64,000 bases of DNA. Source: an uncultured Planctomycetia bacterium (GTDB taxonomy: Bacteria > Omnitrophota > Gorgyraeia > Duberdicusellales > 4484-171). Positions 21,564 through 38,930 of the stretch are shown here, piece by piece. Positions within the stretch are counted from its first letter, which is position 1; each line of letters begins with the position of its first letter. The DNA lies in contig CAYVYJ010000002.1 of assembly GCA_964455085.1 (NCBI GenBank), forward strand, positions 8,194-72,193. Direction: 5' to 3'. A program made the position numbers and the translations under genes. A model generated the notes under the pieces. It was not told the DNA's origin, did no database searches, and worked only from the letters and a program-made list of their open reading frames with translations.

Positions 21564-22289
21564 GTGAGTTTATTGGATAACAAAGATGATCTAAAGGTAT
21601 TGGTGGAGAAGTTAAATTTTAAGGAAAAGGTTGACCGGTCTCTAGCTCTTATCAATGAAGCTTACGAGAAGTACGGTGACAGTTTAGTAGTAGCTAATAG
21701 CCTTGGCAAAGATTCGGTGGCAGTCTGGCATCTTGCAAAAAAGGTTAGTCCGAAAATAAAAGGGTTTATCGTTACAACCCGATTTAAGCCCAAAGAAACC
21801 ATAGAATTTATGAATCAAGAAGTGGCGCGCTACCAGGAACTAAAAATTTACAAAAGTGATGTGGATATACCACCAGAGCTCTACAAGACCGACCCTGATA
21901 GGTGTTGCGATTTGCTTAAGGTAGAGCCGGTAAAGCGGGCAGTTGAAGAAATGAAAGTAACTTGTTGGGTTACTGGCTTACGTTGTACTGAAGGCCGTAC
22001 CAGGACTGATTATAAAGAAGTTGAAGAAAGAGACGAAGGGCTAACGAAGCTGAACCCTATTCTTATCTGGAAAGAGCGGGAAGTTTGGCAATATCTTGCC
22101 CTATACGGAGTCAAGGTTAATCCTTTGTATGCAAAAGGGTACCGTTCCTTAGGTTGCGAGCCTTGTACAAAGATAACTAATGAAGATAATGAACGTTCAG
22201 GCCGTTGGATTGGTACAAGTAAATGTGGCGGAGAGTGTGGTATACACACCAGACCGCTTAAAACAAACTTAGACGGCGAAGGCATTTGA
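21564..22289 (+). CDS. cysH: Adenylyl-sulfate / phosphoadenylyl-sulfate reductase (CysH family, Fe-S type)
   Basis: GTG start with AAGGAGGG RBS; PP-loop SLGKDS; CC...CxxC cluster motif (RCCDLL, GCEPC); C-terminal ECGIH catalytic motif. Confidence 0.85.
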   Translation: MSLLDNKDDLKVLVEKLNFKEKVDRSLALINEAYEKYGDSLVVANSLGKDSVAVWHLAKKVSPKIKGFIVTTRFKPKETIEFMNQEVARYQELKIYKSDVDIPPELYKTDPDRCCDLLKVEPVKRAVEEMKVTCWVTGLRCTEGRTRTDYKEVEERDEGLTKLNPILIWKEREVWQYLALYGVKVNPLYAKGYRSLGCEPCTKITNEDNERSGRWIGTSKCGGECGIHTRPLKTNLDGEGI

Positions 22290-22387: not shown

Positions 22388-23332
22388 TTGGTGGTATTTT
22401 TCTCTCTAAATATGGGGGGCAGTAATTTCGGTGCTTCGTTTGCTGCAGCCCACGGAGGGAAGATAATTACCAAAAGAAGGGCCCAGCTTCTTTTCGTTAT
22501 CTTTATTTTATTGGGCGCAGTTTTAATGGGGCGTCCAGTAACAGAGACTATCGGAAAAAAAATAATTCCTCCGGAGCTTATTAACTTCGAAGTACTTCTT
22601 GTAATCTTTACTTCTACAGCGCTTAGTTTATTCATTGCTAACCAACTGCAGGTACCTCAATCGACTAGTCTTGTTACTATTGCTTCGATATTGGGAGTAG
22701 GGGCGTATTTAGGACGAGTTTACTTTGGTACATTAGCTTATTTATTGCCTTTCTGGGTATTATTACCAGTAGTAGGGTACTTATTGACATTTTTTCTGGG
22801 AAGGATAATATATCCTCCTCGAAGGAGTAATTTTTGGATTTACGAGAAATTAGTAAACCACAAAAACAGATTAAAAGCCTTTGTTATAATAGCTAGTTGT
22901 TATAATGCTTTTAGTATTGGTACTAATAATGTAGCCAATGCAGTTGGTCCTCTCCTTGGAGCCGGGATTGTGGATAAGACATTGGGGCTAGTTTTAATAG
23001 CTCCTATTTTTGGTTTAGGCAGTATAGTTTTTTGCGGCCCGCTGGAAACTACCGGAGGGAAAATAGTTCCTTTGGGGCTCTTATCAGCTACAATAATTTG
23101 CCTTGTAACCGGGACGCTTATGGTTACAGCTTCCTTTTTGGGAGTTCCTCAATCTTTTGTGATGATAAAGGTAGCGTCGGTCTTTGCTATTGGGAGCTTA
23201 AAGGATGGACACAGGCTTACATTTTTAAATCCGGTGACAAGAAAGACATACCTTACATGGCTTATAACTCCCATTGTTGCTTTTGGGCTTTCTTTTATTT
23301 TGAGTTGGCTAAAGGGTACATTTTTTGTTTAA
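22388..23332 (+). CDS. PiT-family anion permease (phosphate/sulfate; CysP-like given context); start codon uncertain
   Basis: Two PiT signature repeats (GGSNFGASFA; GTNNVANAVGPLLGAG), about 10 TM helices; adjacent to cysH; the in-frame hydrophobic extension upstream of the TTG at 22388 suggests an earlier non-canonical start. Confidence 0.7.
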   Translation: MVVFFSLNMGGSNFGASFAAAHGGKIITKRRAQLLFVIFILLGAVLMGRPVTETIGKKIIPPELINFEVLLVIFTSTALSLFIANQLQVPQSTSLVTIASILGVGAYLGRVYFGTLAYLLPFWVLLPVVGYLLTFFLGRIIYPPRRSNFWIYEKLVNHKNRLKAFVIIASCYNAFSIGTNNVANAVGPLLGAGIVDKTLGLVLIAPIFGLGSIVFCGPLETTGGKIVPLGLLSATIICLVTGTLMVTASFLGVPQSFVMIKVASVFAIGSLKDGHRLTFLNPVTRKTYLTWLITPIVAFGLSFILSWLKGTFFV

Positions 23333-23362: not shown

Positions 23363-24394
23363 ATGGGTTTAATAGTTGTAGGTACAAGTTATAAATATAG
23401 CTCTCTTCAATTAAGAGAGAAGATGGCATTTTCTAAGAAAAAGGCAAAAGAAGCCCTCCTTCTTTTAAGACACAAGAAGCTATTAAGTGGGGCAGTCGTT
23501 CTTTCAACTTGCAATAGGACAGAAATCTATGCTAGTTCAAAAGATACTGAATTTGGCCTAGAGAAAATAGAGGAATTTATTTGTTCTTACCACGAACTAG
23601 AAAGAGGTGATGTCTCACCTTACCTGTATAAACATAAAGACTCACAGGTCTTGGAGCACCTCTTTTGTCTTGCTAGTGGTGTAGATTCTTTGATTTTGGG
23701 TGAAAGACAAATCGCCGGACAAGTAAAAGAAGCTTTACTCCAAAGCCAAGAAGCCAAATTTACCGATGAGCTTTTAGATGGAGTATTTGAGGCGGCTTTG
23801 ACCTTTGCCAAAAGAGTGCATGAGCAAACAACAATATCTGAAGGGAAGGTATCAGTAGGCAGCATAGCTATAGATTTTATAAAGGGAAAACTTAAAAGCC
23901 TTTATAATAAAAGTATTTTAATTATTGGAGTTGGTAAAGTCACCGAACTTCTACTTAAATATCTTAAAAAAGAAAAACCTAAAGTCGTATTTATATCTAA
24001 TCGGACCTTTGAGAAAGCAAAAGATTTTGCCTCATTAATAGGTGCAAGAGCAGTTAATTTTAACCAGTTTAGCCAATATCTAAAAGAGGCAGATGCTATT
24101 ATAACTGCTACCAAGAGCCCCAATTTTATTATTAAAAAGGAAGAAATCGCAAAGGCCAGAAGAGCTGAACTGTTGATTTTGGATCTAGCCTTGCCAAGAG
24201 ATGTTGATCCTGAGGTAAGGCAAATAAAGGGAGTGGATCTCTTCCATTTAGAGGAGTTGAATAAGGTTATAAGAGATAATTTCAAGAGAAAAAGTATTCA
24301 GGCAGAGATAGTAAAAGATCTTGCCCGTGCAGAGGTAGAAGAATTATGGAGCAAATTTATAAAGCTGGAACCAGAACCAGCCCTCTTGCCTTAA
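23363..24394 (+). CDS. hemA: Glutamyl-tRNA reductase
   Basis: Catalytic LSTCNRTEIY motif, NADPH-binding IIGVGKVTE. Confidence 0.85.
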   Translation: MGLIVVGTSYKYSSLQLREKMAFSKKKAKEALLLLRHKKLLSGAVVLSTCNRTEIYASSKDTEFGLEKIEEFICSYHELERGDVSPYLYKHKDSQVLEHLFCLASGVDSLILGERQIAGQVKEALLQSQEAKFTDELLDGVFEAALTFAKRVHEQTTISEGKVSVGSIAIDFIKGKLKSLYNKSILIIGVGKVTELLLKYLKKEKPKVVFISNRTFEKAKDFASLIGARAVNFNQFSQYLKEADAIITATKSPNFIIKKEEIAKARRAELLILDLALPRDVDPEVRQIKGVDLFHLEELNKVIRDNFKRKSIQAEIVKDLARAEVEELWSKFIKLEPEPALLP

Positions 24395-25029
24395 AACAGG
24401 TTGATGAGGTTTTAGCAAGTTTGCGAAAGATTTACCCGAGGCTTAAGGTAGAGGTAATAGGTATTGATACCTGTGGGGATAAAGATAAGTCTAAACCTAT
24501 ATCGACCATAGAAGGCAGTGATTTTTTTACAAGAGAGATAGATGAGGTTCTCCTGAAGGGAGAAATAGATTTTGCTGTTCATAGCGCTAAAGATTTGCCA
24601 GATAAGATTGCCAAGGGCCTTAAGGTTGCTGCAATTACTGCTTCAATCGACCCTAGAGATGTTTTGGTCTCCAAAGGCAATCTAAGGCTTAGTAAACTTC
24701 CCATAGGTGCAAAGATTGGAACGAGTAGCCTTCGTCGTAAGAGCCAATTAAAGGCCTACAGAGATGATTTTGAGATAATTGATATCCGCGGTAATATAGG
24801 GGACAGGCTAAAGATTTTAGGCAATAACGATTTGGATGCGATTCTTATAGCTGCCGCTGGTTTAATTAGGTTAGGATTAGAAGATGAAATTAGCCAAAGG
24901 CTTCCTGTTGATATAATGCAGCCACATCCTTATCAGGGTGCATTGGCAGTTGTTGTCCGCAGAGAGGATAGAACACTATTTAAGTTATTAAGCGTGTTAG
25001 ATAACAAAAAAGAGTTAAGTAAAGTATGA
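24346..25029 (+). CDS. hemC: Porphobilinogen deaminase (HemC) domains 1-2 only; C-terminal domain 3 with cofactor-binding Cys is absent
   Basis: GTRTSPLALKQ, IDFAVHSAKDLP motifs; ends at the point where E. coli HemC continues into domain 3 (...EGGCQVP...). Confidence 0.7.
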   Translation: MEQIYKAGTRTSPLALKQVDEVLASLRKIYPRLKVEVIGIDTCGDKDKSKPISTIEGSDFFTREIDEVLLKGEIDFAVHSAKDLPDKIAKGLKVAAITASIDPRDVLVSKGNLRLSKLPIGAKIGTSSLRRKSQLKAYRDDFEIIDIRGNIGDRLKILGNNDLDAILIAAAGLIRLGLEDEISQRLPVDIMQPHPYQGALAVVVRREDRTLFKLLSVLDNKKELSKV

Positions 25030-25053: not shown

Positions 25054-25266
25054 ATGAATATTAAGGTTAATGGTAAGGAGAAAAGTTTTGATAAGGTTTC
25101 GCTCTCAGTATCTGAATTATTGAAGGTGAGTGAGGTACAGAGACCAGAAGTGGTTTCAGTGCAGCTCAACGGAGAGTTTGTTAAAAAAGAATATTTAGCG
25201 AGCACACATTTAAAAGAGAATGATCAGGTTGAGTTTTTGTATTTTATGGGTGGAGGCATAAGTTAA
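25054..25266 (+). CDS. ThiS/MoaD-family sulfur-carrier protein (HcyS/CysO-like) with a C-terminal extension after the GlyGly (..MGGGIS)
   Basis: 70 aa beta-grasp, MNIKVNGKE...VEFLYFMGGGIS; adjacent to metY, an E1 and a JAMM protease. Confidence 0.75.
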   Translation: MNIKVNGKEKSFDKVSLSVSELLKVSEVQRPEVVSVQLNGEFVKKEYLASTHLKENDQVEFLYFMGGGIS

Positions 25267-25291: not shown

Positions 25292-26530
25292 ATGAAGAAG
25301 TTAAAGTTTATAACAAGAATCCTTCACAATAAGTTTTTAAAGAAAGATGTTCACGGCTCTCTACATATGCCTATTTACAATAATGTGGCTTTTGAATTTG
25401 ATACTGCGGAAGATATTGAGTTGGCATTTCAAGGTAAAAAGCCTGCCCATATGTATAGTAGGATAAGTAATCCTACAATTGAGAATTTTGAACAGAAGGT
25501 CAGGGTTGTTACTGATGCTTTAGGGGTTATTGCTCTGTCTTCGGGTATGGCTGCTATTTCAAATCTTATTTTGGCGGTCTGTGAGGCTGGAGATAACATC
25601 ATAACTACTAAACATTTATTTGGGAATACATATTCTTTGTTTGAGAAGACCCTTAAAAGCTGGGGGCTTGGGGTAAAATACACTGACTTAACCCAGCCCG
25701 GAAACCTTAAACACTTAATCGATAGTAAGACTAGAGCGATATTCTTTGAGACTATAACTAACCCTCAATTAGAGGTGGTAGATGTTAAGGCCTTATCTAA
25801 AATAGCAAAGGCTAAAGGTGTCTTGCTTATTGTTGACACAACTCTTACTCCTCCCTATACCTTTGACTCCAAAGCTTCTGGGGCTGATGTTGAAGTTTTA
25901 TCAAGCACTAAATACATATCTGGCGGTGCAACTTCAGTCGGTGGATTGATAATTGATAATGGTACTTATGATTGGGGTAAGAATAGTAAACTAAAAGCCG
26001 ATGTAAAGAAATATGGTAATTTTGCGCTTATCAATAAACTAAGGCGTGAGGTATATAGGAATATAGGTGCTTGCTTGTCTCCCCAGAATGCTTTTCTGCA
26101 AAGTGTCGGCTTGGAAACTTTACCATTACGGGTAGATGCCTCTTGTGCCAATACCTTAGAGATTGCCAAGTTTTTGCAGAGTTCACCTAAGGTAAAGTCG
26201 GTAAATTACCCCGGCCTTGAAGGCTCAAAATTTTATGAGATAGCTAAGAAGCAATTTGGCGTTAATCCCGGGAGTTTGCTTACCTTTGATTTAACTTCAA
26301 AACAGGAGTGTTTTGAGTTTATGAATAAATTAAAACTTATCAGGAGGTCGACTAATCTAAACGATAATAGGACTTTAATATTGCATCCGGCATCAACTAT
26401 ATTCTGTGAGTATGATGATAAGCTTAGAGCGGAAATGAATATAGGCGAAGCTATGATTCGTCTTTCTGTAGGTATTGAGGATCCAGTTGATCTGATTTCT
26501 GACATAAAAAGCGCATTGGAGGGGATATGA
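25292..26530 (+). CDS. metY: O-acetylhomoserine sulfhydrylase (MetY; Cys/Met-metabolism PLP enzyme)
   Basis: PLP-lysine region SSTKYISGGATSVGG, YSRISNPT motif, about 410 aa. Confidence 0.85.
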   Translation: MKKLKFITRILHNKFLKKDVHGSLHMPIYNNVAFEFDTAEDIELAFQGKKPAHMYSRISNPTIENFEQKVRVVTDALGVIALSSGMAAISNLILAVCEAGDNIITTKHLFGNTYSLFEKTLKSWGLGVKYTDLTQPGNLKHLIDSKTRAIFFETITNPQLEVVDVKALSKIAKAKGVLLIVDTTLTPPYTFDSKASGADVEVLSSTKYISGGATSVGGLIIDNGTYDWGKNSKLKADVKKYGNFALINKLRREVYRNIGACLSPQNAFLQSVGLETLPLRVDASCANTLEIAKFLQSSPKVKSVNYPGLEGSKFYEIAKKQFGVNPGSLLTFDLTSKQECFEFMNKLKLIRRSTNLNDNRTLILHPASTIFCEYDDKLRAEMNIGEAMIRLSVGIEDPVDLISDIKSALEGI

Positions 26531-27339
26531 TAAATTTCAGCGAAGAACAATTAAATCGGTATAGCCGCCATATTATTTTAGCTGATGTCGGAGTAGAGGG
26601 GCAACAAAAAATAATGGCTGGTAAAGTTCTAATCATCGGGGCCGGAGGCTTGGGTGCACCAGCCAGCCTTTATTTAGCTGCTGCTGGCGTAGGTACAATA
26701 GGGATAGTTGATGGAGATGTAGTTGAGACATCGAATTTGCAGCGGCAGGTAATCCACTTTACTGCCGATGTTGGTAAACCCAAGGTAGTTTCAGCTAAAG
26801 AGAAGATGGAAGCTATAAATCCAGAAGTAAAAGTAGTTACTCATCAGGAAAAAGTATTTGCGAACAATATCTTGGAGATAATAAAAGGCTATGATTTTGT
26901 CATTGACGGTACTGATAATTTTCCAGCTAAATTTCTTATTAATGATGCTTGTGTCTTAAGCAAGAAACCTTTTTCTCATGGCGGAATCCTAAGGTTTGAC
27001 GGTCAGGCCATGACCTATATCCCTGGTCAGGCTTGTTATCGCTGTGTATTCACTACTCCTCCTCCTTCAGATGCTGTGCCGAGTTGCTCTCAGGCCGGAG
27101 TTTTAGGAGCTGTTGCCGGAATGTTAGGGACAATACAAGCTGCCGAGTCCTTAAGATATTTGATTGGAAGAGGAGATCTTTTGGTGAACAGGTTGTTTAT
27201 TTTTGATGCCTTTAACATGAAATTTAGGAGTGTGAATATAAAGAAAAATCCTAAATGTCCAATATGCTCGGATAAACCAACAATCACCGAGCTAATTGAT
27301 GAGGTGCAGTCGGTTTGTGAATGGAAGAAAAGGAACTAA
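26527..27339 (+). CDS. MoeB/ThiF/HcyF-type E1-like adenylyltransferase for the sulfur-carrier protein
   Basis: Nucleotide-binding GAGGLG, conserved Cys, C-terminal CxxC...CxxC zinc motif (CYRC...CPIC); no rhodanese domain. Confidence 0.85.
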   Translation: MINFSEEQLNRYSRHIILADVGVEGQQKIMAGKVLIIGAGGLGAPASLYLAAAGVGTIGIVDGDVVETSNLQRQVIHFTADVGKPKVVSAKEKMEAINPEVKVVTHQEKVFANNILEIIKGYDFVIDGTDNFPAKFLINDACVLSKKPFSHGGILRFDGQAMTYIPGQACYRCVFTTPPPSDAVPSCSQAGVLGAVAGMLGTIQAAESLRYLIGRGDLLVNRLFIFDAFNMKFRSVNIKKNPKCPICSDKPTITELIDEVQSVCEWKKRN

Positions 27340-28634
27340 GGTTAAGGAGCTTAAGGTGGATGAAGATAAAAAGAGAAATTATTAAAAAAATCATTGTCCA
27401 AGCAAAAAGAGCTGCTCCGATAGAAGCCTGCGGTTATTTAGCATCTAAGTCTGGCATAGTGGCTAAACACTACACAATGACTAATATTGATAAGAGTCAA
27501 GAGCATTTCTCTTTTGCTCCCGAAGAGCAATTTAAGGCGGTAAAAGATGCCCGGGCAGAAGGTTTTGAAATTTGCGCAGTTTATCACAGCCATCCGGAAA
27601 CCGGCGCCAGACCTTCGCCGGAGGATATAAAGCTGGCATTTGATCCTAATTTAGTTTATGTAATTGTGTCTTTGCAAAAAGGAAATGAAGATGTTAAGGC
27701 ATTTACCATTAAACAGGGAAAAGCAAAAGAGGTAGAGATGGAAATAGAAGATAAAAATACTGGTGAGATTTCTAAGGCCGAGACAGACCTAGCTGAATTA
27801 AAAAGAGTAGGAATAATTCAACAGAAGCAAAAAAACTATTTTGTAATGAGGCTTAGGGCAGTAGGTGGAGATCTTACTACAACCCAGCTTAAGAAAATTG
27901 CCGAAGTTGCTGATAAATATGCTGACAGCCAAGTGCATTTATCTACTCGTCAGGGAGTAGAAATACATAATGTGCATCGCAAGAATTTGGCAGACGCACG
28001 CCAGGAGCTAAAAGAGGCAGGAGTAGAAATGGGTGCTTGCGGTCCTCGCATAAGAGTTATTGTAGCTTGTCCGGGATCAATAACCTGCCGCTGGGGCATT
28101 ATCGAAACAAAACAATTGGCCAAAGAACTTGATGCTAATTACTTCAGAAAAGATACGCCGCATAAGTTCAAGATTTCAGTCACTGGGTGTCCGCATAATT
28201 GTGCAAAAGCAACAGAGAATGATGTTGGTATTATGGGTGGTATACTTCCCAAGTGGGAAGAGGAAGAATGCATACATTGTGATTTGTGCGTTAATATTTG
28301 TCCGACTAAAGCCATCTATAAGCAAAATGGCCAGTATAAACTAGATAAGAAAAAATGTATTCTATGTAGTATTTGTACTGCTTCTTGTCCGACGAACAGT
28401 TGGGTGCCGGAGAAAAAAGGATATATTCTCTTTATCGGCGGAACCATGGGGAAAAAACCCAGACTTGCGACCCGGTATCCGGGACTCATAGAGAATAAGA
28501 CGAAACTTATGAAATTGGTTGAGCGAGCACTTCTTTTTTTTAGAAAACATGGCCGGAAAAAAGAAAGATTTGGGCATTTTATCGATAGATTTGGTGAAAA
28601 AAAGGCAGTAAAGGAGATTTCCGATGGAGTTTAA
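27321..28634 (+). CDS. Fusion protein: N-terminal JAMM/MPN+ metalloprotease (Mec+/HcyD-like) and C-terminal small siroheme sulfite/nitrite reductase with two ferredoxin-type 4Fe-4S motifs (start possibly ATG 27360)
   Basis: JAMM motif EACGYL...HSHPETGARPSPED (HxHx7SxxD); NiR/SiR ferredoxin-like half domain; siroheme-4Fe4S Cys pattern CPGSITC...CPHNC; CIHCDLCVNICP and CILCSICTASCP. Confidence 0.8.
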   Translation: MEEKELRLRSLRWMKIKREIIKKIIVQAKRAAPIEACGYLASKSGIVAKHYTMTNIDKSQEHFSFAPEEQFKAVKDARAEGFEICAVYHSHPETGARPSPEDIKLAFDPNLVYVIVSLQKGNEDVKAFTIKQGKAKEVEMEIEDKNTGEISKAETDLAELKRVGIIQQKQKNYFVMRLRAVGGDLTTTQLKKIAEVADKYADSQVHLSTRQGVEIHNVHRKNLADARQELKEAGVEMGACGPRIRVIVACPGSITCRWGIIETKQLAKELDANYFRKDTPHKFKISVTGCPHNCAKATENDVGIMGGILPKWEEEECIHCDLCVNICPTKAIYKQNGQYKLDKKKCILCSICTASCPTNSWVPEKKGYILFIGGTMGKKPRLATRYPGLIENKTKLMKLVERALLFFRKHGRKKERFGHFIDRFGEKKAVKEISDGV

Positions 28635-28860
28635 TGTTGTTAAGAGAATAGACTTGCACGGTATTGCTTGTCCAATGAATTTTGTTAAAACCAAAGTTGC
28701 CTTGGAAGCGATTAATTCCGGTGAAGTATTGGAAGTTATTCTCGATGAGGGAGAAGCAATGTTAAATGTTCCAAGGAGCCTTAAGGAAGAGGGCCATAAG
28801 ATTCTAAAAGTTATCCCTGCCGCAGACGGGATATACAAAGTTATCGTGGAAAAGAGATAA
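28624..28860 (+). CDS. TusA/SirA-like sulfurtransferase
   Basis: 78 aa; LHGIACPMNFVKTK resembles the TusA CPxP region (variant CPMN). Confidence 0.6.
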   Translation: MEFNVVKRIDLHGIACPMNFVKTKVALEAINSGEVLEVILDEGEAMLNVPRSLKEEGHKILKVIPAADGIYKVIVEKR

Positions 28861-28862
28861 AG

Positions 28863-30266
28863 ATGAAGAGAAGAAAAGTATATTTAGTCGGAGCAGGCCC
28901 GGGTAAGCCTGATCTCATAACTGTGAAGGGACAAAATATCCTAAGAGAAGCAGATGTTATAATTTATGACTATCTTGTTAATCCCGCTATTTTAGCTAAG
29001 GCTAACAAGAGAGCCGAAATAATAAACTGCCGGAATTTAGTTTCGGATAAAAGGTTCAGAAGCCCTCGTGCAAGGCAATTAGCCATAAATAATTTATTAG
29101 TAACTAAGGCTAAACAAGGCCGAAAGGTCTTGAGGCTCAAAGGTGGAGATCCAACTGTTTTTGGTCGTTGTTCAGATGAAACAAGAGCTTTGGCCAATCA
29201 AAAAATTGAGTTTGAGGTTGTTCCCGGGGTGAGTGCCGCAAGTGCCGCAGCTACTTTCGGCGGCATACCTTTAACTGACAATAGATTTGCTTCAAGTTGT
29301 CTTATTGTAAGTGGGCATAAGGGTTCAAAAAGAGGAGGTTCAAATCTTGATTGGGAAAATTTAGCTGGAGTTGATACTCTGGTTCTTTATATGGCCGTCG
29401 GTAATTTAACTAATATAATTAAGAAAATTATCTCAAGTGGTAAAAATGATAATACCCCAGTAGCTATAGTCAAAGACGCAAGTCTTATAACCCAGAAGGT
29501 CATAATCGGGACCTTAAAAGATATTGGAATCAAGGCTGAACAGAATAAATTAAAAGCTCCGGCGATAATCATTGTTGGTAAGGTAGTCGAAGTAGAAAAA
29601 AGGTGTAACTGGTTAAAAAAGAATAAGAGAATTCTTTTTACTGGTTTATCTAAGGAGAGATTCTTTCTCAAAGGTACTTATTTTCATCTGCCTTTAATTA
29701 AAATAGCTCCACTCAAGAGCTATAAGAGATTCGATAATTACCTAAAAAATATAGATAAATTTGATTGGATAGTTTTTGCTAGCCGTTTCGGTGTAGAGTA
29801 TTTTTTCAAAAGGTTAAATGGTTTAAAGTTAGACTCAAGAGTTATTGTTAGGGCTAAAGTTGCAGCTGTAGGTAATTCTACCAAAAACAAACTCCTTAAT
29901 TTTGGAATTTTAGCTGATCTAGTTCCCAAGATAGAATCGTCACAAGGGTTGTTAGAGGAATTCAGAAAACACGATCTTAAAAATAAAAAGATATTTTTGC
30001 CGCGTTCCGACTTATCTGATAAGGGTCTGGGCAAAGGGCTTGAAAACCTTGGTGCTAAGGTGAGCGTGGGTTTTGCCTATAGTAATTCCATGCCCAAGAA
30101 CTTACCAGATTTAGATTTAGAAAGTTTTGATGAAATTCATTTTACCAGTCCTTCAACCGTGAAGAATTTTAAGAAGCGATATAAAAGTGTACCCAAAAAT
30201 GTTAAGGTACGATGTATAGGGAATGTAACTTTAAAAGAGGCCAAAAGATGCCAGCTGTTAAGTTAA
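28863..30266 (+). CDS. Uroporphyrinogen-III C-methyltransferase (CobA/SUMT) fused to uroporphyrinogen-III synthase (HemD)
   Basis: N-terminus VYLVGAGPGKPDLITVKG...GGDPTVFGR (SUMT); C-terminal 230 aa HemD-like. Confidence 0.85.
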   Translation: MKRRKVYLVGAGPGKPDLITVKGQNILREADVIIYDYLVNPAILAKANKRAEIINCRNLVSDKRFRSPRARQLAINNLLVTKAKQGRKVLRLKGGDPTVFGRCSDETRALANQKIEFEVVPGVSAASAAATFGGIPLTDNRFASSCLIVSGHKGSKRGGSNLDWENLAGVDTLVLYMAVGNLTNIIKKIISSGKNDNTPVAIVKDASLITQKVIIGTLKDIGIKAEQNKLKAPAIIIVGKVVEVEKRCNWLKKNKRILFTGLSKERFFLKGTYFHLPLIKIAPLKSYKRFDNYLKNIDKFDWIVFASRFGVEYFFKRLNGLKLDSRVIVRAKVAAVGNSTKNKLLNFGILADLVPKIESSQGLLEEFRKHDLKNKKIFLPRSDLSDKGLGKGLENLGAKVSVGFAYSNSMPKNLPDLDLESFDEIHFTSPSTVKNFKKRYKSVPKNVKVRCIGNVTLKEAKRCQLLS

Positions 30267-31234
30267 GAAGATTACGTAAAACTAAGATTGTAAGAGATTG
30301 GATTAGCCAGACCAAATTCAATGCCAGGGATTTTATTATGCCTTATTTTATCTGCGAAGGTAAGAACAAAAAGGAACCCATTGAGTCAATGCCAGGGGTT
30401 TGGCGCTTATCACTCGATAGAGCCTTGGAAGATTTAAAGAAAACTAAAGGTATAAAAGCAATACTTTTGTTTGGCGTTCCAGCTAGGAGAGACGTGGTAG
30501 GTTCTTTTGCTTACAAAAAGAATGGCATTATTCAGAAGGCTGTGAGGGCGATAAAGCAGAGATATAAAGATTTGATTGTGATAACCGATGTTTGCCTTTG
30601 CGGTTATACATCGCACGGTCATTGTGGCTTATTGAGTGAGCCAAAAGCAAATAAGAGGCAAGAAGTAATTATAGATAATGACGATACTTTAAAAATCCTA
30701 ACTAAAATCGCTCTTTCTCATGCTGATGCCGGAGCAGATTTTGTTGCTCCTTCAGCAATGATGGATGGGCAAGTAAGAGCAATAAGAGAAGCGTTTGATA
30801 ACAAAGGATTTAAAGAGGTGGGGATTATGGCTTATTCTGCCAAATATGCCTCGCACTTCTATAGGCCTTTTAGAGAGGCTTTAGATTCTGTACCGCAATT
30901 TGGTGATAGAAAAAGCTATCAGATGGATTTTAGAAATTCAGATGAGGCTTTAAGAGAGATAAAGCAGGATATAGATGAAGGTGCAGATATAGTTATGGTA
31001 AAGCCAGCCTTAGCTTATTTAGATATTATTTATAGAGCAAAACAGAAATTTAATATTCCTATAGCTGCTTACAATGTAAGTGGTGAATATAGTATGATTA
31101 AAAAAGCAAGTGAAGGCAACAAAGCAGAAGAAAAAGAGCTATGTCAAGAAGTGCTTACTTCTATAAAAAGAGCTGGTGCAGATTTAATCATAACTTATTG
31201 GGCTAAAGATTTAATAAAATGGTTAAAACAATAA
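30248..31234 (+). CDS. hemB: Porphobilinogen synthase (delta-aminolevulinate dehydratase), zinc-type
   Basis: Cys-rich zinc site DVCLCGYTSHGHCG; ATG at 30248 (MPAVKL...). Confidence 0.9.
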   Translation: MPAVKLRRLRKTKIVRDWISQTKFNARDFIMPYFICEGKNKKEPIESMPGVWRLSLDRALEDLKKTKGIKAILLFGVPARRDVVGSFAYKKNGIIQKAVRAIKQRYKDLIVITDVCLCGYTSHGHCGLLSEPKANKRQEVIIDNDDTLKILTKIALSHADAGADFVAPSAMMDGQVRAIREAFDNKGFKEVGIMAYSAKYASHFYRPFREALDSVPQFGDRKSYQMDFRNSDEALREIKQDIDEGADIVMVKPALAYLDIIYRAKQKFNIPIAAYNVSGEYSMIKKASEGNKAEEKELCQEVLTSIKRAGADLIITYWAKDLIKWLKQ

Positions 31235-32538
31235 ACTTAGACGCTAATCGTAAATTATTTAATGAAGCAAAAAAGGTTATACCTGGGGGTGTAAACAGTC
31301 CTGTTCGTTCGTTTGTTTCTGTAGGTGGGCACCCAATTTTTAGTAAAAAAGGATGCGGCCCTTATCTTTGGGATGAGCAAGGCAAAAAATATATAGACTA
31401 TTGTCTTTGCTGGGGAGCGTTGATTTTAGGTCATGCTCATCCAGGGTTACTAAAAGTTTTAAAGAGTAGAATAGATAAAGGAATAGGTTTTGGCACAGCT
31501 ACTGAGCCGGAGATAGCTCTAGCCAAACTTATTACTCAAGCTTTTCCTTTGATTGAGCAGGTAAGATTGGTTAATTCCGGAACAGAAGCAGTAATGTCTG
31601 CAATAAGGCTGGCAAGAGCTTATACGAAAAAACGAAAAATTATAAAGTTTGAAGGTTCATACCATGGCCATGCTGATCATCTTTTAGTAAAAGCTGGTTC
31701 AGGTCTTGCTACTTTGGGTATATCAAATAGTTGTGGCGTCCCGCAAGATTTTGCCAAACATACAATTGTTATTCCTTTTAATAACTTAGAAGTTTTTAAA
31801 TCAACAGTTAAAAAATATCAAGGTGATTTAGCAGCAGTAATAGTTGAGCCGATAATGGCAAATTGTGGCTTAATACTTCCGAAAGAAGCATTTCTGAAAA
31901 CCTTAAGAAAACTTACTAGTGAAAATGATATTGTTTTGATCTTCGATGAAGTTGTTACTGGTTTTAGGCTGGGGTTTGGCGGAGCTCAAGAGTTTTTTGG
32001 AATCAAACCTGATCTTACATGTTTAGGTAAGATAATCGGGGCAGGTCTTCCTATAGGAGCTTTTGGTGGTCTCAGAAAAATAATGAAATTATTAGCACCC
32101 ATAGGTAGTGTGTATCAAGCCGGCACACTTTCCGGTAACCCCATCTCTGTTACAGCGGGAATTTTTACCTTAGAGACTTTAAAAAAACTAAATTCTTACA
32201 AGAGTCTTGAGAATAAGACAAAAAAAATATCTTTGGCATTAAAATCAGCAGCAGAGAAAAATAATATAGATTTAAAAGTAAATCGTATCGGTTCTATGTT
32301 TTCATTATTTTTTACAAAAAAGGAAGTCATAGACTACAAAACAGCAAAAACTCAAAACTTGGATTTATTTAGAAGTTTTTTTAAGACTATGTTGTTTCAA
32401 GGGGTATATCTTTCTCCTTCTGGTTTTGAGACAAATTTTTTATCTATTGCCCATAGTAATGATGATATCGAAAAGACAATTAGGATTTTTGAAAAGACAT
32501 TAAAGAAATTTGGGAGGAAAAAGAATGATAAATGTTAA
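31219..32538 (+). CDS. hemL: Glutamate-1-semialdehyde 2,1-aminomutase
   Basis: Class III aminotransferase fold, 439 aa, typical HemL N-terminus (FNEAKKVIPGGVNSPVR). Confidence 0.9.
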   Translation: MVKTINLDANRKLFNEAKKVIPGGVNSPVRSFVSVGGHPIFSKKGCGPYLWDEQGKKYIDYCLCWGALILGHAHPGLLKVLKSRIDKGIGFGTATEPEIALAKLITQAFPLIEQVRLVNSGTEAVMSAIRLARAYTKKRKIIKFEGSYHGHADHLLVKAGSGLATLGISNSCGVPQDFAKHTIVIPFNNLEVFKSTVKKYQGDLAAVIVEPIMANCGLILPKEAFLKTLRKLTSENDIVLIFDEVVTGFRLGFGGAQEFFGIKPDLTCLGKIIGAGLPIGAFGGLRKIMKLLAPIGSVYQAGTLSGNPISVTAGIFTLETLKKLNSYKSLENKTKKISLALKSAAEKNNIDLKVNRIGSMFSLFFTKKEVIDYKTAKTQNLDLFRSFFKTMLFQGVYLSPSGFETNFLSIAHSNDDIEKTIRIFEKTLKKFGRKKNDKC

Positions 32539-33463
32539 CCAGCAGGTTGCAAACAATGTATTAGAGCTTATAGGTAATACTCCTATGGTTAGACTTAATA
32601 GGATTTGTGAAGCCGGAATGAGTCAAATTCTTGCAAAGGTTGAGCTTTTTAACCCTGGTGGGAGTGTAAAGGATAGGATATGCCTTTCTATGGTTGAACA
32701 AGCTGAGAAAAATGGCCTATTAAAGCCCGGTTCAACTATCATTGAACCTACAAGCGGAAATACCGGCATTGGTTTGGCTATGGTTTGTGTTGTAAAGAAT
32801 TATCGCTGCGTACTTATTATGCCCGAGCTTATGAGTTTAGAAAGAATTTATATACTTAGATCTTATGGAGCAGAAGTTATACTTACTCCGGCGATTGAAG
32901 GTATGTTAGGAGCGATAAAAAAGGCAAAAGAGGTTGCAAAAAATACTCCTAATAGTTTTATACCCCATCAGTTTACTAATAAAGCCAACCCTCAAGTTCA
33001 TCGGGAAAGTACAGCCCAGGAGATTTTAGCTGTTGCCGGGAAAGATATAGATGCATTTGTTGCCGGAGTCGGCACAGGTGGGACTTTAACCGGAGTCGGT
33101 GAGGTTTTAAAGGAGCATAACCCGGAAGTTAAAATAATAGCTGTTGAGCCCAAAACAAATGCTGTACTATCGGGCGAGAAGCCCGGTCCGCATAAAATTC
33201 AGGGTATTGGCGCCGGATTTATACCCGAAATTCTTAACCTAGATGTAATTGACCGGATAATTAAAGTAGATGACAACGATGCTTTTAGAACTGCAAGAAG
33301 GCTGGCTAAAGAAGAGGGTTTATTTGTAGGGATATCATCTGGAGCTGCCACCTGGGCGGCTTTAGAAGTTGCTAGAGATTTAGGAAAAGGAAGAAAAGTT
33401 GTTGTCTTTTTGCCTGATACTGGTGAAAGATACTTTTCGATGGAACAATACTTTGAGGCTTAA
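32524..33463 (+). CDS. cysK: Cysteine synthase (O-acetylserine sulfhydrylase), paralog 1
   Basis: PLP-lysine region [23 protein letters not shown] motif; ATG at 32524. Confidence 0.9.
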
Positions 33464-33500: not shown

Positions 33501-33947
33501 ATGGCTATGAAGATTTCGACAAAAACACGTTATGGTGTTAGGTTAATGCTGTTACTTGCTCTTAACTATGGTAAAGGGCCGCTACTTCTTAAGGAGATCT
33601 CCAGGAGAGAGGGGATTTCAGAAAAGTATTTAGGACAGATAATAATTCCTTTAAAGAGTGCCGGCCTTGTTACTTCCATCCGGGGAGCACGGGGAGGTTA
33701 TGAGTTGGGCAATCATCCCGCTGAGGTGACTTTAAAAAGCATCATTGAAGTTCTTGATGGTGAGATAAGTTTAGCTGAACGAATTAATGGATTCGCTTCT
33801 CCTAGCCGGGCAGCTTATTGTTCCAGTCATTTTGTGTGGGAAACATTGGAGAGAAACATATCTAAGACACTGGAGGCAATAACTCTTGAGAATTTAGTCT
33901 CAAAATACGGAGAGAATAAGAAGAACTCTATCATTTATAACATATAG
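33501..33947 (+). CDS. Rrf2-family transcriptional regulator (CymR/IscR-like)
   Basis: MKISTKTRYGVRLMLLLA..., wHTH and GYELGNHPAEVTLKSIIEVLDG; sits between cysK and the ThiI-like gene. Confidence 0.8.
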   Translation: MAMKISTKTRYGVRLMLLLALNYGKGPLLLKEISRREGISEKYLGQIIIPLKSAGLVTSIRGARGGYELGNHPAEVTLKSIIEVLDGEISLAERINGFASPSRAAYCSSHFVWETLERNISKTLEAITLENLVSKYGENKKNSIIYNI

Positions 33948-33959
33948 GGTGTTTATTCT

Positions 33960-35000
33960 ATGAAGGCCTATCAGCAGAGTCAACTAAGTACAATATCTAC
34001 TACGAGAAGAAGAGCAGTGGTGTTATTCTCCGGTGGCTTAGATAGTACTCTGGCAGCCAAAGTAATTATTAACCAGGGGTTAGAGATAATTGCTTTGAAT
34101 TTTAGGAGTCCTTTTTGTCGGTGTGATCGATCAAGCAGGTGTGGATCTTCAATAAGAGATATGGCTAATCAATTGGGGATAGAGTTTAAATCAGTCTATT
34201 TGGGTCAGGAGTATCTTCGAATAGTTAAGACTCCGGATTATGGTTATGGCAGAAATTTAAATCCTTGCATTGATTGTAGAATATTTAAATTTAGAAAGGC
34301 AAAAGAATACATGAGAGAAATAGGTGCTTCTTTTGTTATTACTGGAGAAGTTCTAGGCCAGAGGCCAATGTCTCAGCATAGAAGGGCTTTGGAAGTAATA
34401 GAAAGAGAAGCCGGGCTCACAGGTCTTATTTTACGACCCTTGTCAGCTAAATTATTTTCACCCACAATTGCTGAGCAAAATAACTGGGTGAATAGAGAGA
34501 GTTTACTTAGTATTTCCGGGAGAACAAGAAAGCCCCAGATAAAATTGGCAACAGAATTGGGTTTAAAGAATTATCCTTGTCCGGCTGGGGGGTGTCTTCT
34601 AACAGATCCTGCATTTACGCGGCGCCTGAAGGATCTTATGGAACATGAAGATTTCAATATAGCTAACGTAGAATTATTAAAACTAGGAAGACATTTTAGG
34701 ATAAATTCTTCCTTTAGGCTGGTTGTAGGAAGAGATGAGAAAGAAAATGCTAAACTTAAAAACTTTCTTCAAAAAGATGATTTATATTTTGAACCTACAA
34801 AGCTTGCTGGACCTTCAGGGCTGCTTAGAGGTAAGTGGGATAATGAATTTAAAAATATAGCTGCTAAAATTATTGCATATTATACGTCAAGAGAACAAAA
34901 AGTAGAAATTTCTGTTTCGAATATCTCTGGTAACAATGAAGATAAAATATTTGCAGAAGCAATTCAAGAGTCGGTTGCGAGGAAATTAATGATTTTATAG
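33960..35000 (+). CDS. ThiI-type PP-loop ATP pyrophosphatase domain protein (no THUMP or rhodanese domain) with additional Cys clusters; putative Fe-S/sulfide-dependent thiolation enzyme
   Basis: PP-loop VVLFSGGLDS; ITGEVLGQRPMSQ and ILRPLSA match the ThiI core; Cys clusters CRCDRSSRC, CIDC, CPAGGC. Confidence 0.6.
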   Translation: MKAYQQSQLSTISTTRRRAVVLFSGGLDSTLAAKVIINQGLEIIALNFRSPFCRCDRSSRCGSSIRDMANQLGIEFKSVYLGQEYLRIVKTPDYGYGRNLNPCIDCRIFKFRKAKEYMREIGASFVITGEVLGQRPMSQHRRALEVIEREAGLTGLILRPLSAKLFSPTIAEQNNWVNRESLLSISGRTRKPQIKLATELGLKNYPCPAGGCLLTDPAFTRRLKDLMEHEDFNIANVELLKLGRHFRINSSFRLVVGRDEKENAKLKNFLQKDDLYFEPTKLAGPSGLLRGKWDNEFKNIAAKIIAYYTSREQKVEISVSNISGNNEDKIFAEAIQESVARKLMIL

Positions 35001-35050: not shown

Positions 35051-35977
35051 ATGGAAAGAGTTTTTTCAGATATTACTAAAACCATAGGTGGTACTCCTTT
35101 AGTTAAGATTAACAGATTGAGCAAAGGTCTAGATGCCACAATATTAGCTAAGCTGGAATCTTTCAATCCGCTTTCAAGCGTAAAGGACAGGATTGGTAGG
35201 GCCATGATTGAAGCAGCTGAGGAGAAAGGCTTAATTAATAAAGATACGGTTATAGTTGAGCCGACAAGCGGTAATACCGGGATTGCTCTGGCTTTTGTCT
35301 GCGCTGCTAAAGGGTACAAGCTAATCCTTACAATGCCCGACACCATGAGTATAGAGCGTCGGCAACTTTTGAAGATCTTTGGGGCTGAATTAGTTTTGAC
35401 CGAAGGAGCCAAGGGAATGAAGGGAGCGGTTGAGAAAGCCGAAGAGATTGCCAAAACCACTCCTAATAGTTTTCTCCCTCAGCAATTTAACAATTTAGCA
35501 AATCCCCAAATTCATAGAGAGACTACTGCTGAGGAAATTTGGAGCGACACCGAAGGTAAGATCGATATTTTTATCGCCGGGGTAGGAACCGGGGGAACCG
35601 TTACTGGAGTCGGAGAGGTACTTAAGAAGAAGAAGCCGGGAATCAAAGTTATTGCTCTTGAACCAGAGGATTCTCCGGTGCTTTCCGGGGGCTCTCCTGG
35701 CGCCCACAAAATTCAAGGTATCGGTGCTGGATTTGTCCCGGAAGTTTTAAACCAAGGGGTAATAGATGAGGTTATGACTGTAGCTGATGCTGTTGCCGGA
35801 GATTTAGCAAGACAGCTGGCCAAAGAGGAAGGTATTTTTGTGGGAATATCCAGCGGTGCAGCTATGTGGGCGGCAGTAGAGGTAGCAAAGCGTCCGGAAT
35901 CAAAGGGTAAGGTAATTGTGGTTGTTTTTCCCGATACCGGTGAGAGATATCTTTCGACCTGGTTATTTACGGAGTAA
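35051..35977 (+). CDS. Cysteine synthase paralog 2 (CysK/CysM type)
   Basis: [24 protein letters not shown]; clearly paralogous to 32524-33463. Confidence 0.9.
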
Positions 35978-36053: not shown

Positions 36054-37178
36054 ATGAGAAATAAAGATAGTTTAGGAATAATCGAAACTCAGTATTTTAC
36101 TTTTGCTCAAGGGTCAAGCCAGCTTAGGCTCGACAGTGGAGCGCGACTGGGGCCAGTCACTTTAGCTTATGAGACTTACGGAGCATTGAATGAGAGCAAA
36201 GACAATGCCATTCTCATTGTTCATGCTTTATCCGGAGATGCTCATGCAGCTGGCCTTCATCAGGGAGATGAGAAACCTGGATGGTGGGATAATATGATTG
36301 GTCCGGGTAAGGCCTTTGACACTAATAAATACTTTATTATCTGTTCTAATATTATCGGCGGCTGCCGGGGGAGTACTGGGCCCTCAACTATTAATCCGGC
36401 AACCGGTGAGCCTTACGCCCTCAAATTTCCATTGATTACCATTAAGGACATGGTTAAGGCCCAAAAAAAACTAATAGACCATCTTGGTATTTCCCAACTT
36501 TTATCAGTCTCTGGTGGCTCAATGGGGGGAATGCAGGTTTTAGAGTGGGCTGCTTCTTATCCTGAAATGATTCGTTCGGCAATTCCCATTGCAACAGCCT
36601 TAAAACACTCTCCGCAGCAAATTGCTTTTGATGAGGTAGGCCGGCAAGCAGTAATGGCTGACCCTGACTGGCTAGATGGCAATTATTATGGCAAGAGGCA
36701 ACCGGAAAGAGGTCTAGCGGTCGCCCGGATGATTGGCCATATCACTTACATGAGCGATAAATCTATGGAGAGTAAGTTTTCTCGGAAGTTGAAAGATAAA
36801 AACTATAGTTTTGCTTTTAAAACCGATTTTGAAGTTGAAGGCTATTTACGCTATCAAGGAGATAGCTTTGTAAAGCGTTTTGACGCTAACTCTTATCTTT
36901 ATATTACCAAAGCTATGGATTACTTCGATTTATCGGGAGGTAAACTGATTGCTAAGAATGATAAAATTGATACCCGGTTTCTGGTAATAGCTTTTAAGTC
37001 CGATTGGCTTTATCCGGCATATCAATCGCTGGAGATAGTACACCAGCTTAAAATGCGGCAGGTAGATGTGACTTATTGTGAGATGCAGTCTACTTATGGA
37101 CACGATGCCTTTTTGCTGGAAGTTGATGAACAAACACGTCTGATTAAGCATTTTTTGAAAAAAACCGCCAGTCTTTAG
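36054..37178 (+). CDS. metX: Homoserine O-acetyltransferase
   Basis: Alpha/beta-hydrolase nucleophile elbow GGSMGGMQ, about 370 aa, followed by metW. Confidence 0.85.
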
Positions 37179-37181
37179 GAG

Positions 37182-37775
37182 ATGGATAAGATAAGGTTAG
37201 ACCACAGAGTTATTTATAAGATTATTAAACCCGGTTCCAAGGTTTTAGATTTAGGGTGCGGAGACGGGGACTTACTATATTTTCTGGTTCGCGAAAAAAA
37301 GGTTAAAGCTCAGGGCATAGAGTTAGATGAGCAGGCAATATATAAGTGTGTTGAGAAAGGTTTAAGCGTATTTCATGGTGATATTGAGAGCGGCCTCTCA
37401 GGTTTCCCGGATAAGTGCTTTGATTATGTGATTTTGAATCAAAGTATGCAGGAAGTCAAGAAAGTTGATTATGTAATGAATGAATCTTTGCGTATCGGTA
37501 AGAAAGTTATAGTCGGGTTTTCTAATTTTACCTATATTTCCGCTCGCCTAAGAATATTTTTAGGAGGAAAAGTTCCCATAACCGCTTCCCTGCCCTATCA
37601 CTGGCATAATACACCCAATGTGCACTTCCTTAGCATAAGCGATTTTCAAGATTTTTGTAAAGAGAAGAACCTTGCGATTATTAAGTCTTTTTATTTAGGC
37701 AGAAAAAGACTCATAAGATTATTTCCTAATCTGCTTGCTTTAAATGCAATTTTTCTTATTAGTTCAGATAAATAA
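37182..37775 (+). CDS. metW: Methionine biosynthesis protein MetW
   Basis: About 200 aa, methyltransferase-like LDLGCGDG, immediately after metX. Confidence 0.8.
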   Translation: MDKIRLDHRVIYKIIKPGSKVLDLGCGDGDLLYFLVREKKVKAQGIELDEQAIYKCVEKGLSVFHGDIESGLSGFPDKCFDYVILNQSMQEVKKVDYVMNESLRIGKKVIVGFSNFTYISARLRIFLGGKVPITASLPYHWHNTPNVHFLSISDFQDFCKEKNLAIIKSFYLGRKRLIRLFPNLLALNAIFLISSDK

Positions 37776-38922: not shown

Positions 38923-38930
38923 GATAAAGA

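Follow-up and report, generated by a model that had tools for sequence, protein, structure and literature searches.

Iyer, Burroughs & Aravind (2006; PMC1779556) defined an operon class, 4e, in which a ThiS/MoaD-type carrier, a JAB peptidase, an E1 enzyme and SirA are encoded together with genes of sulfate assimilation; the JAB protein of this class is described as 'standalone', the E1 as lacking a rhodanese domain and SirA/TusA as obligatory, and a fusion of ThiS to sulfite reductase (SiR) was already known from actinobacteria. Citing Krishnamoorthy & Begley (2011), the relevant passages of PMC5764234 and PMC8191291 refer to a pathway made up of HcyS, HcyD, HcyF, MetY and Sir. Here we analyse a stretch of 64,000 nucleotides (the window) from contig CAYVYJ010000002.1 of an uncultured Planctomycetia bacterium, placed by GTDB in the Omnitrophota. 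Its sulfur operon has the gene neighbourhood of class 4e, with an E1 that lacks rhodanese and with SirA/TusA as an obligatory member; however, a JAMM (Prok-JAB) peptidase and a small siroheme SiR are here encoded as one polypeptide by a single gene (27360..28634, +), and no JAB-SiR, JAB-SiR-TusA or ThiF-SiR fusion is reported for class 4e (PMC1779556). The pathway and the operon are already known; it is the fused form that is apparently undescribed.

Several features of the window's operon are also those of the Wolinella succinogenes system: a tailed ThiS-like carrier, a JAMM protease, a ThiF-type E1 without rhodanese domain, MetY and a sulfite reductase, all in one operon. This protein-thiocarboxylate route to methionine was reportedly described by Krishnamoorthy and Begley in JACS in 2011. 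There HcyD and Sir are separate proteins, whereas in the window they are joined in one chain. TusA is an invariant partner in loci of the window's type, and we know of no role assigned to it in the W. succinogenes pathway.

The immediate question is whether the fusion is real. A frameshift, a chimeric assembly or an error of gene calling could have merged two separate genes, and closely spaced adjacent genes are indeed prone to false merging; one related match, P0128 (423 aa, SiR preceded by a C-terminal fragment of MetY), may itself be a false merger, or else truncated or miscalled, and is not counted here. Yet positions 27321..28634 (+) form one open reading frame (ORF) of 437 aa with zero internal stops, the identical 424-aa protein is present on 13 independently assembled contigs (the longest of 113 kb), about 29 clusters of fused proteins with 54–86% identity come from sources as separate as NCBI, JGI, ENA and Logan, and the linker between the two halves stays in frame while its sequence varies. 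The contigs, the fused clusters and the in-frame variable linker rule out an artefact, whose probability we regard as negligible; the frameshift or sequencing error that had been named as fatal to the prediction is thus absent. The fusion is genuine, and in this the original prediction for this DNA – a JAMM/MPN+ metalloprotease and a small siroheme sulfite reductase in a single polypeptide – was right. It was less fortunate with the start of the gene, which it placed at 27321. Every homolog starts at the position of M14 of the window protein, an AAGGAG box lies 10 nt 5′ of the ATG at 27360, and public collections carry exactly the 424-aa form; the most likely start is thus 27360, giving 424 aa in an ORF that opens at 27321. 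This ATG lies 20 nt past the thiF stop, and from it the gene does not overlap thiF. Residue numbers below are those of the 437-aa ORF unless called model residues.

The N-terminal half contains a Prok-JAB (JAMM/MPN+) domain (residues 19–128; 27375..27704, +), recognised by Pfam (PF14464) with E = 2e-22 and 79.7 bits against a cut-off of 25. Its catalytic motif E...HxH-x7-S-xx-D is present in full – E35, H89, H91, S99 and D102 (HSHPETGARPSPED) – and all five residues are invariant in an alignment of the window protein with 20 fused homologs. The fold, too, is that of an MPN domain: by Foldseek, the JAB half of the structural model matches Desulfitobacterium hafniense DSY2949 (2kks; TM 0.81, rmsd 2.0) and Pyrococcus furiosus JAMM1 in its structure with the SAMP2 carrier (5lda; TM 0.87). 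The complete JAMM active site read from the letters at the outset is therefore confirmed. With thiS-metY-thiF directly 5′ of the gene, an arrangement conserved in ~40 species, we predict this half to be a carrier-processing peptidase of the HcyD/Mec+ type. Proteins of that type are expected to stand alone at ~130–150 aa, whereas this one is joined to an SiR of 280 aa.

The remainder of the protein is a small siroheme SiR module (27816..28619, +), in which Pfam finds NIR_SIR_ferr at residues 166–233 (1.4e-20; 73.2 bits against a cut-off of 24) and NIR_SIR at residues 241–433 (8.4e-32; 110.2 bits against 27); for these two matches, as for Prok-JAB, chance is excluded by a wide margin. A two-cluster ferredoxin insert occupies residues 311–360 (28251..28400, +) and is presumed to be the entry point for electrons; its CxxCxxCxxxCP motifs lie at 317–327 (C317, C320, C323, C327) and 346–356 (C346, C349, C352, C356). 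Both motifs are invariant among the window protein and the 20 fused homologs, as are C250, C256 and C294; C290 is missing solely in P0027, a protein with an internal deletion. Against the solved Fsr sequence the SiR half scores E = 2e-40, in a match that spans only Fsr chain residues ~311–612, and the model of this half superposes by Foldseek on Fsr of M. thermolithotrophicus with an rmsd of 2.9 Å over 277 columns. R177, R245, K282 and K284 align with the sulfite-binding Fsr residues R355, R423, K460 and K462; C250, C256, C290 and C294 align with the cluster ligands C428, C434, C468 and C472 of the Fsr CX5C...CX3C motif; and R210 aligns with Arg388, which the Fsr structure paper calls a hallmark of assimilatory enzymes and whose authors link such hallmarks to complete six-electron reduction. 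The siroheme/4Fe-4S cysteines and the two ferredoxin motifs initially noticed are hence upheld by Pfam, by invariance and by the Fsr alignment. Because the C-terminal half superposes on Fsr with its binding and cluster residues in place, it does not lack siroheme features in a structure-based alignment, an outcome that had been named as fatal to the prediction.

By its features, rather than by placement in a tree, the SiR half also has what Susanti & Mukhopadhyay (2012) use to define group IIId of the Dsr-LP proteins, namely the features of group I together with a peripheral and an additional [4Fe-4S] cluster and four Arg/Lys residues: both extra [4Fe-4S] sites and the four Arg/Lys are present. 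We predict a small siroheme-[4Fe-4S] reductase of Fsr-C / group IIId Dsr-LP type, which is probably homodimeric and probably takes its electrons from ferredoxin via the two extra [4Fe-4S] clusters. Other family assignments were considered and rejected. The AsrC model (TIGR02912) gives 134 bits against a cut-off of 324, with no asrA or asrB among the neighbouring genes examined; the DsrB model gives 114 bits against 341.5, and the motif is CX5C, not the CXnCCX3C of DsrB; the DsrA model gives 89 bits against 393, and R210 stands at the assimilatory hallmark position. Membership of Fsr itself fails at the N-terminus, which is Prok-JAB and not an FrhB-like F420H2 dehydrogenase.

Between the halves lies a variable, flexible linker of low conservation (residues ~129–163; 27705..27809, +), which differs in both length and sequence among fused homologs. 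The AlphaFold model, computed from a 71-sequence alignment, has a mean pLDDT of 90 and a pTM of 0.63, with pLDDT below 50 at linker model residues 132–140. As modelled, the protein consists of two confident domains joined by a flexible tether, and with a disordered linker and this pTM no fixed interface between JAB and SiR is predicted.

The fusion is not peculiar to the window. A search of 5.8 billion clustered proteins returned 630 relatives at E ≤ 1e-10, and the domains of the best 120 clusters, defined at 90% identity, were compared: 29 of these 120 contain JAB and SiR at full length, the remaining 91 being SiR proteins of ~288 aa. The domain pair, a search for which in other genomes had been proposed as a check, does recur. 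A view of its surroundings came from 79 loci of species-representative genomes. The two genes are fused in five of these (an unclassified bacterium, an Omnitrophota, two Planctomycetota and a Nitrospinota genome); in 35 a separate JAB gene lies directly 5′ of SIR, with gaps from −58 to +9 bp and mostly a 4-bp overlap; and in 39 there is no adjacent JAB, 37 of these being without any JAB gene in the locus. The order thiS-metY-thiF-JAB-SIR-tusA-cysH is kept in Bacillota, Syntrophia, Methanomicrobia, Omnitrophota, Planctomycetota and Nitrospinota, and also in Margulisiibacteriota, Elusimicrobia and others. The full 13-gene order of the window is common to a fused locus (L001) and to two Omnitrophota loci, L006 and L007, which are 74% similar to that of the window and in which the genes are unfused and separated by 5 bp. 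In a neighbour-joining (NJ) tree of SiR domains the fused proteins fall into at least three clades, and the unfused L006 and L007, together with one ThiF~SiR fusion, nest within the clade of the window.

How the fusion arose can be read from the junction. The fused gene derives from genes that were adjacent: its linker of ~30 residues comprises the former C-terminal tail of JAB, ~10 extra residues and the former N-terminus of SiR, with TDLAELKRVG in the window corresponding to MDPSELKKIG at the SiR N-terminus of the unfused L006. Since the junction is no more than JAB tail, some ten residues and the usual SiR N-terminus, a simple merger by stop loss accounts for it, and the sequences indicate loss of the stop codon between adjacent, translationally coupled JAB and SIR genes as the origin of the fusion. 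Compactness does not have this result elsewhere in the operon. JAB and SIR are fused in 5 of 41 neighbour pairs, whereas equally compact pairs are fused in 0 of 172 (thiS-metY 0/33, metY-thiF 0/34, thiF-JAB 0/37, SIR-tusA 0/68). The last pair is telling, given that the stop of SIR and the start of tusA overlap in all 68 loci that have both genes, including Chlorobi loci without thiS, thiF or JAB on that strand; this distribution suggests that the reductase is the main partner of TusA.

Further fusions centred on SiR emerged from a scan of 1.84 billion representatives followed by domain annotation. P0124 is a distant JAB~small-SiR fusion (41% identity). There are also triple fusions of JAB, a two-module SiR and TusA, 860–960 aa long (L082 8001-10751; L083 8001-10742; proteins P0153, P0186, P0235, P0291 and P0297), in which the SiR belongs to a different class without the ferredoxin insert; they form at least 32 clusters (90% identity) inside a large family of SiR~TusA fusions, and they lie in the same type of operon, thiS-(metY)-thiF-...-cysH-cysD-cysNC. 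A comparison of L082 with L085, the gene beginning at 8001 in both, is particularly instructive. Synteny is identical, flanking proteins are 83–95% identical and the JAB parts 81%, whereas the SiR parts are only ~30% identical: one locus has a two-module SiR to which TusA is fused, while in the other the SiR is small and TusA a separate protein (the TusA sequences being 58% identical); in both, JAB is fused to SiR. Between these closely related genomes the reductase has been exchanged in place, as a domain or a cassette, and the JAB fusion kept or re-formed. ThiF and ThiS have also been joined to SiR. P0069 is a ThiF~SiR protein of 566 aa found on two independent contigs (L080 3062-4762 and L081 494-2194), in a locus that contains Rrf2, cysH, cysP, tusA, cobA/hemD and cysK and is without thiS, metY and JAB; P0143 (398 aa) has ThiS N-terminal to SiR, with the ThiS GG internal, so that release would need proteolysis. 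Taken together, SiR fusions to JAB, TusA, ThiF and ThiS argue for physical association of these proteins.

Two other arrangements deserve mention. In P0195 (451 aa) a C_GCAxxG_C_C redox domain stands N-terminal to the small SiR. In Spirochaeta thermophila (CP001698.1; L084 3634-9214) the genes run thiS-metY-thiF-DsrE-like-tusA-JAB-SiR~TusA, JAB overlapping the SiR~TusA gene by 4 bp, with a hemC~cobA~hemD triple fusion downstream; the DsrE-like/TusA pair of this operon suggests a persulfide relay. Apparent fusions of hemC with cobA/hemD also occur 3′ of the sulfur genes in L026, L033, L037, L039 and L046.

The carrier provides a separate line of evidence. The ThiS-like protein of the window (25054..25266, +; 70 aa; Pfam ThiS, TIGR01683), the presumed substrate of the JAMM domain, ends in FMGGG-IS. 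Carriers in loci with JAB end in FMGGG, or rarely in something similar (FLGGG or FVGGG, for example), followed by 1–7 extra residues; the tails in other fused loci are K, R or NF. Chlorobi carriers, from loci without JAB, end exactly at GGG. Given that related carriers stop at GGG where JAB is absent, the removable tail is 'IS', and the processing site should be written GGG|IS in place of the GG-GIS first proposed. The co-variation of carrier tail and JAB presence supports trimming of the tail as one job of the JAMM domain. In the Chlorobiaceae loci L049, L058 and L061-L064, whose carriers end in ...FAGGG with no tail and no nearby JAB, metY-cysK-thiF lie divergently beside SIR.

The genes around the fusion were identified by Pfam and NCBIfam scans, with hemA, hemC, hemB and hemL named by homology, translation and synteny. 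They are co-directional, in the order cysH, cysP, hemA, hemC, thiS, metY, thiF, JAMM-SiR, tusA, cobA/hemD, hemB, hemL, cysK, Rrf2. The 5′ part encodes the (P)APS reductase CysH (21564..22289, +), the presumed source of sulfite; a CysP-type sulfate permease of the PHO4 family (22388..23332, +); and HemA and HemC (23363..25029, +), whose assignment rests on translations, NCBIfam side matches and synteny and which would provide tetrapyrrole precursors for siroheme. After the carrier come MetY, an O-acetylhomoserine sulfhydrylase (25292..26530, +; Pfam 2.6e-105) that probably uses the carrier thiocarboxylate, and a ThiF/MoeB-type E1 adenylyltransferase without rhodanese domain (26527..27339, +). 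Window MetY matches PDB 3ri6 with 440 bits and other MetY structures with at most 301; we take 3ri6 to be the thiocarboxylate-dependent MetY of W. succinogenes. The SiR stop is overlapped by 11 nt by the TusA/SirA sulfurtransferase gene (28624..28860, +), which retains the active-site Cys (GIACPMN), and this is followed by a cobA/hemD fusion, hemB and hemL (28863..32538, +; the last two by synteny and translation), for siroheme precursor supply. A CysK-type cysteine synthase (32510..33463, +) has a second copy at 35051-35977; a CysM/CysO-type cysteine synthase was looked for and rejected, both PALP proteins resembling ordinary CysK. MetX, a homoserine O-acetyltransferase of the a/b hydrolase type, and MetW (36054..37775, +) would supply O-acetylhomoserine to MetY.

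Some peculiarities of this region may be recorded. Interspersed among the sulfur genes of the operon are nearly all those for siroheme precursors (hemA, hemC, cobA/hemD, hemB, hemL), which lends indirect support to siroheme binding and sulfite reduction by the SiR half. Genes for ATP sulfurylase, CysDN or APS kinase, which come after tusA in most related loci, were not found among the ORFs of at least 110 aa scanned. The Rrf2-family regulator (33501..33947, +) also adjoins related operons and is a recurrent neighbour of sulfur operons. Nowhere in the 64 kb does an Rfam family attain its gathering score, so that the methionine and sulfur genes have no S-box/SAM riboswitch in front of them. Directly after Rrf2 (33960-35000) stands a fusion protein in which a PP-loop ATPase, with a HUP domain like that of ThiI/MnmA, is joined to an RNA-binding NFACT-R_2 domain, and which may be a tRNA thiolation enzyme drawing on the same sulfur supply. 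Further on (38128-39749) are a Thi4-family thiazole synthase and a DUF6775/DUF7001 'probable metallopeptidase' (E = 1e-78).

What might the fused protein do? In the route from sulfate to homocysteine that we propose, CysP and CysH would supply sulfite, and the SiR domain would turn it into sulfide with electrons delivered, probably by ferredoxin, through the two extra [4Fe-4S] clusters. The JAMM domain would cut the 'IS' tail off the ThiS-like carrier, ThiF would adenylate the exposed GGG terminus, and sulfide, possibly by way of the co-translated TusA, would convert the adenylate to a thiocarboxylate. MetY would then couple the thiocarboxylate to O-acetylhomoserine from MetX/MetW, after which the JAMM domain would hydrolyse the carrier-homocysteine amide, thereby freeing homocysteine and recycling the carrier. 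That the protein is bifunctional, an HcyD-like peptidase and an assimilatory SiR working from sulfate to homocysteine via a carrier thiocarboxylate, is in our judgement very likely. More tentative, and slightly short of an even bet, is the idea that the tether holds the carrier-binding domain, and hence the carrier, close to where sulfide is made, in a loose assembly that is centred on SiR and includes ThiF and TusA. Together these make up our main explanation – a bifunctional JAMM-SiR in the sulfate-to-homocysteine route, with the tether keeping the carrier beside the source of sulfide – to which we give a probability of roughly 0.6. Channelling of sulfide directly onto the carrier acyl-adenylate, as first suggested for this protein, would be a plausible extension.

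A number of observations weigh against this explanation. The adenylate forms on ThiF, and therefore fusion of JAMM to SiR does not by itself bring the electrophile to the sulfide source; tight channelling is further weakened because the two ordinary CysK enzymes presumably need free sulfide. Neither sat nor cysDN nor cysC was found among window ORFs of at least 110 aa between ~9 and 47 kb. The model, with its disordered linker and pTM of 0.63, predicts no fixed interface, and the NJ tree is without support values, which makes any count of fusion events an estimate. The genes are kept apart in 35 of the 41 species with adjacent JAB and SIR, including L006 and L007, the nearest relatives of the window and themselves nested in a fused clade; with most species keeping the genes separate, the fusion is evidently dispensable. 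The absence of a fixed interface and the rarity of the fusion would both be expected if the merger were neutral, an accidental stop loss tolerated thanks to a flexible linker, in which the two halves act as the separate enzymes do and gain nothing save 1:1 expression; the typical 4-bp overlap of JAB and SIR would also make such a merger a small mutational step. But a neutral process should have struck equally compact neighbours, and these are fused in none of 172 cases, the invariably overlapping SIR-tusA pair included. Nor does neutrality sit easily with a fusion that recurs in three or more clades and with a second, non-orthologous class of SiR as well, with its survival when one SiR class was replaced in situ by another next to a JAB that is 81% identical, or with the joining of SiR elsewhere to ThiF, ThiS and TusA. 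We therefore consider a neutral fusion rather unlikely.

Carrier-holding by the JAB domain could also serve a different chemistry, in which no free sulfide is released: the TusA cysteine would take the sulfur at the siroheme, in the manner of DsrC, and the resulting TusA persulfide would attack the acyl-adenylate. Rhodanese persulfides attack the acyl-adenylates of MoaD and ThiS, and the overlap of SIR with tusA in all 68 loci, even those without ThiS, ThiF and JAB, the existence of a large family in which TusA is covalently joined to a two-module SiR, and the additional DsrE-like protein and second TusA of the S. thermophila operon are all consistent with such a relay. No rhodanese domain is present on the E1, and SirA/TusA was predicted by Iyer et al. 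to stand in for it. Set against this are the assimilatory hallmarks of the reductase, R210 (equivalent to Fsr Arg388) and CX5C, which are tied to six-electron reduction, and the requirement for an oxidant in passing from sulfide to persulfide. The W. succinogenes pathway, moreover, is reported to have been reconstituted with sulfide and without TusA. On balance a persulfide relay seems improbable, though it is still a serious alternative. Far less credible still is a role outside assimilation, be it as a dissimilatory or detoxifying SiR (AsrC, DsrAB or Fsr-like) or as part of an E1/JAB/Ubl anti-phage system. IMG does label homologs in the former sense, and ThiF gives partial matches to CBASS E1-E2 profiles; however, NCBIfam scores for AsrC, DsrB and DsrA fall far under their cut-offs, partners of the asrA/asrB or dsr kind are absent from the neighbouring genes examined, the protein has no F420 domain, and the operon is one of cysH, cysP, metY, cysK, metX/W and siroheme genes. 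A CBASS- or Bil-type defence system was rejected: PADLOC matches do not extend beyond the adenylation core of the E1, an E2 domain is lacking, JAB reaches 17 bits, and the carrier and TusA are unmatched.

A more radical possibility is that SiR forms a hub from which reduced sulfur never leaves in free form, the flexible GGG tail of the adenylated carrier or the TusA cysteine entering the siroheme pocket, like the DsrC arm in DsrAB, and taking up the sulfur directly while the JAMM domain docks the carrier. Although this would explain the fusion of JAB, TusA, ThiF and ThiS to SiR as well as the persistence of the JAB fusion through the SiR swap, we think it unlikely, and retain as our preferred explanation the bifunctional JAMM-SiR with a tethered carrier. 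The set of JAB~SiR, JAB~SiR~TusA, ThiF~SiR and ThiS~SiR proteins, combined with the swap, amounts to Rosetta-stone evidence for a physical unit. Because SiR is fused to each of its partners in the carrier system and the JAB fusion outlasts a change of SiR, an SiR-centred complex for sulfur hand-off becomes a concrete and testable hypothesis, with relevance to the delivery of sulfide to ThiS-like carriers in sulfate-assimilating anaerobes. The natural fusions are ready-made single-chain constructs for studies of such hand-off, and S. thermophila – cultured, fully sequenced, and with JAB overlapping SiR~TusA in the same type of operon – offers a tractable system.

There is also a practical consequence for genome surveys. 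NCBI names the fused proteins P0002, P0007 and P0390 'Mov34/MPN/PAD-1 family protein', while in IMG the fused P0004, P0011 and P0025 appear as 'anaerobic sulfite reductase subunit C' or 'dissimilatory sulfite reductase alpha/beta'; because these names mislead, a survey that relies on them can miss an assimilatory sulfite reductase altogether or take it for a dissimilatory one. A survey of Nitrospinota (PMC10839748) reports Sir to be absent from most non-Nitrospinia metagenome-assembled genomes (MAGs), and one of Omnitrophota (PMC10066038) counted COG2221 proteins as DsrA. The JAMM-SiR gene is present in both phyla, and surveys of MAGs may record assimilatory sulfite reduction too seldom or under a dissimilatory label. 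As to novelty, no description of a JAB-SiR fusion was found in the literature searched, outside the coverage of which lay the primary W. succinogenes papers and the TusA review of Tanabe, Leimkuhler and Dahl (2019). The supposition that the architecture is undescribed holds to this extent; it is nonetheless less singular than was thought, being the product of a repeated merger and already present in databases.

It remains to set the fusion beside other known systems. JAMM peptidase and ThiS-like thiocarboxylate also meet in Mycobacterium tuberculosis, where the CysO/CysM/Mec+ system described by Burns and colleagues in 2005 reportedly makes cysteine through CysM, and where Mec+, likewise a JAMM enzyme, is said to hydrolyse the adduct of carrier and amino acid. 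The window differs in that its PALP proteins are of ordinary CysK type and the carrier-dependent enzyme is MetY. DsrAB-DsrC (PDB 2v4j) brings together an SiR and a sulfur-accepting protein whose flexible C-terminal arm lies in the active-site channel, a possible analogy for the GGG tail of the carrier or for TusA; that complex, however, is dissimilatory and heterotetrameric and has the DsrB-type motif, whereas the window protein scores far under the DsrA and DsrB cut-offs. With Fsr of Methanococcales (PDB 7np8, 7npa) the window protein shares the fold, the 2x[4Fe-4S] insert, the CX5C...CX3C cysteines, the sulfite-binding Arg/Lys residues and the assimilatory-type Arg, and Fsr is likewise an N-terminal fusion onto this SiR module. 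But the N-terminal partner in Fsr is an F420H2 dehydrogenase that supplies electrons, whereas that in the window is a peptidase without redox role, from which we conclude that the logic of the JAMM-SiR fusion is the handling of substrates and partners rather than the supply of electrons.

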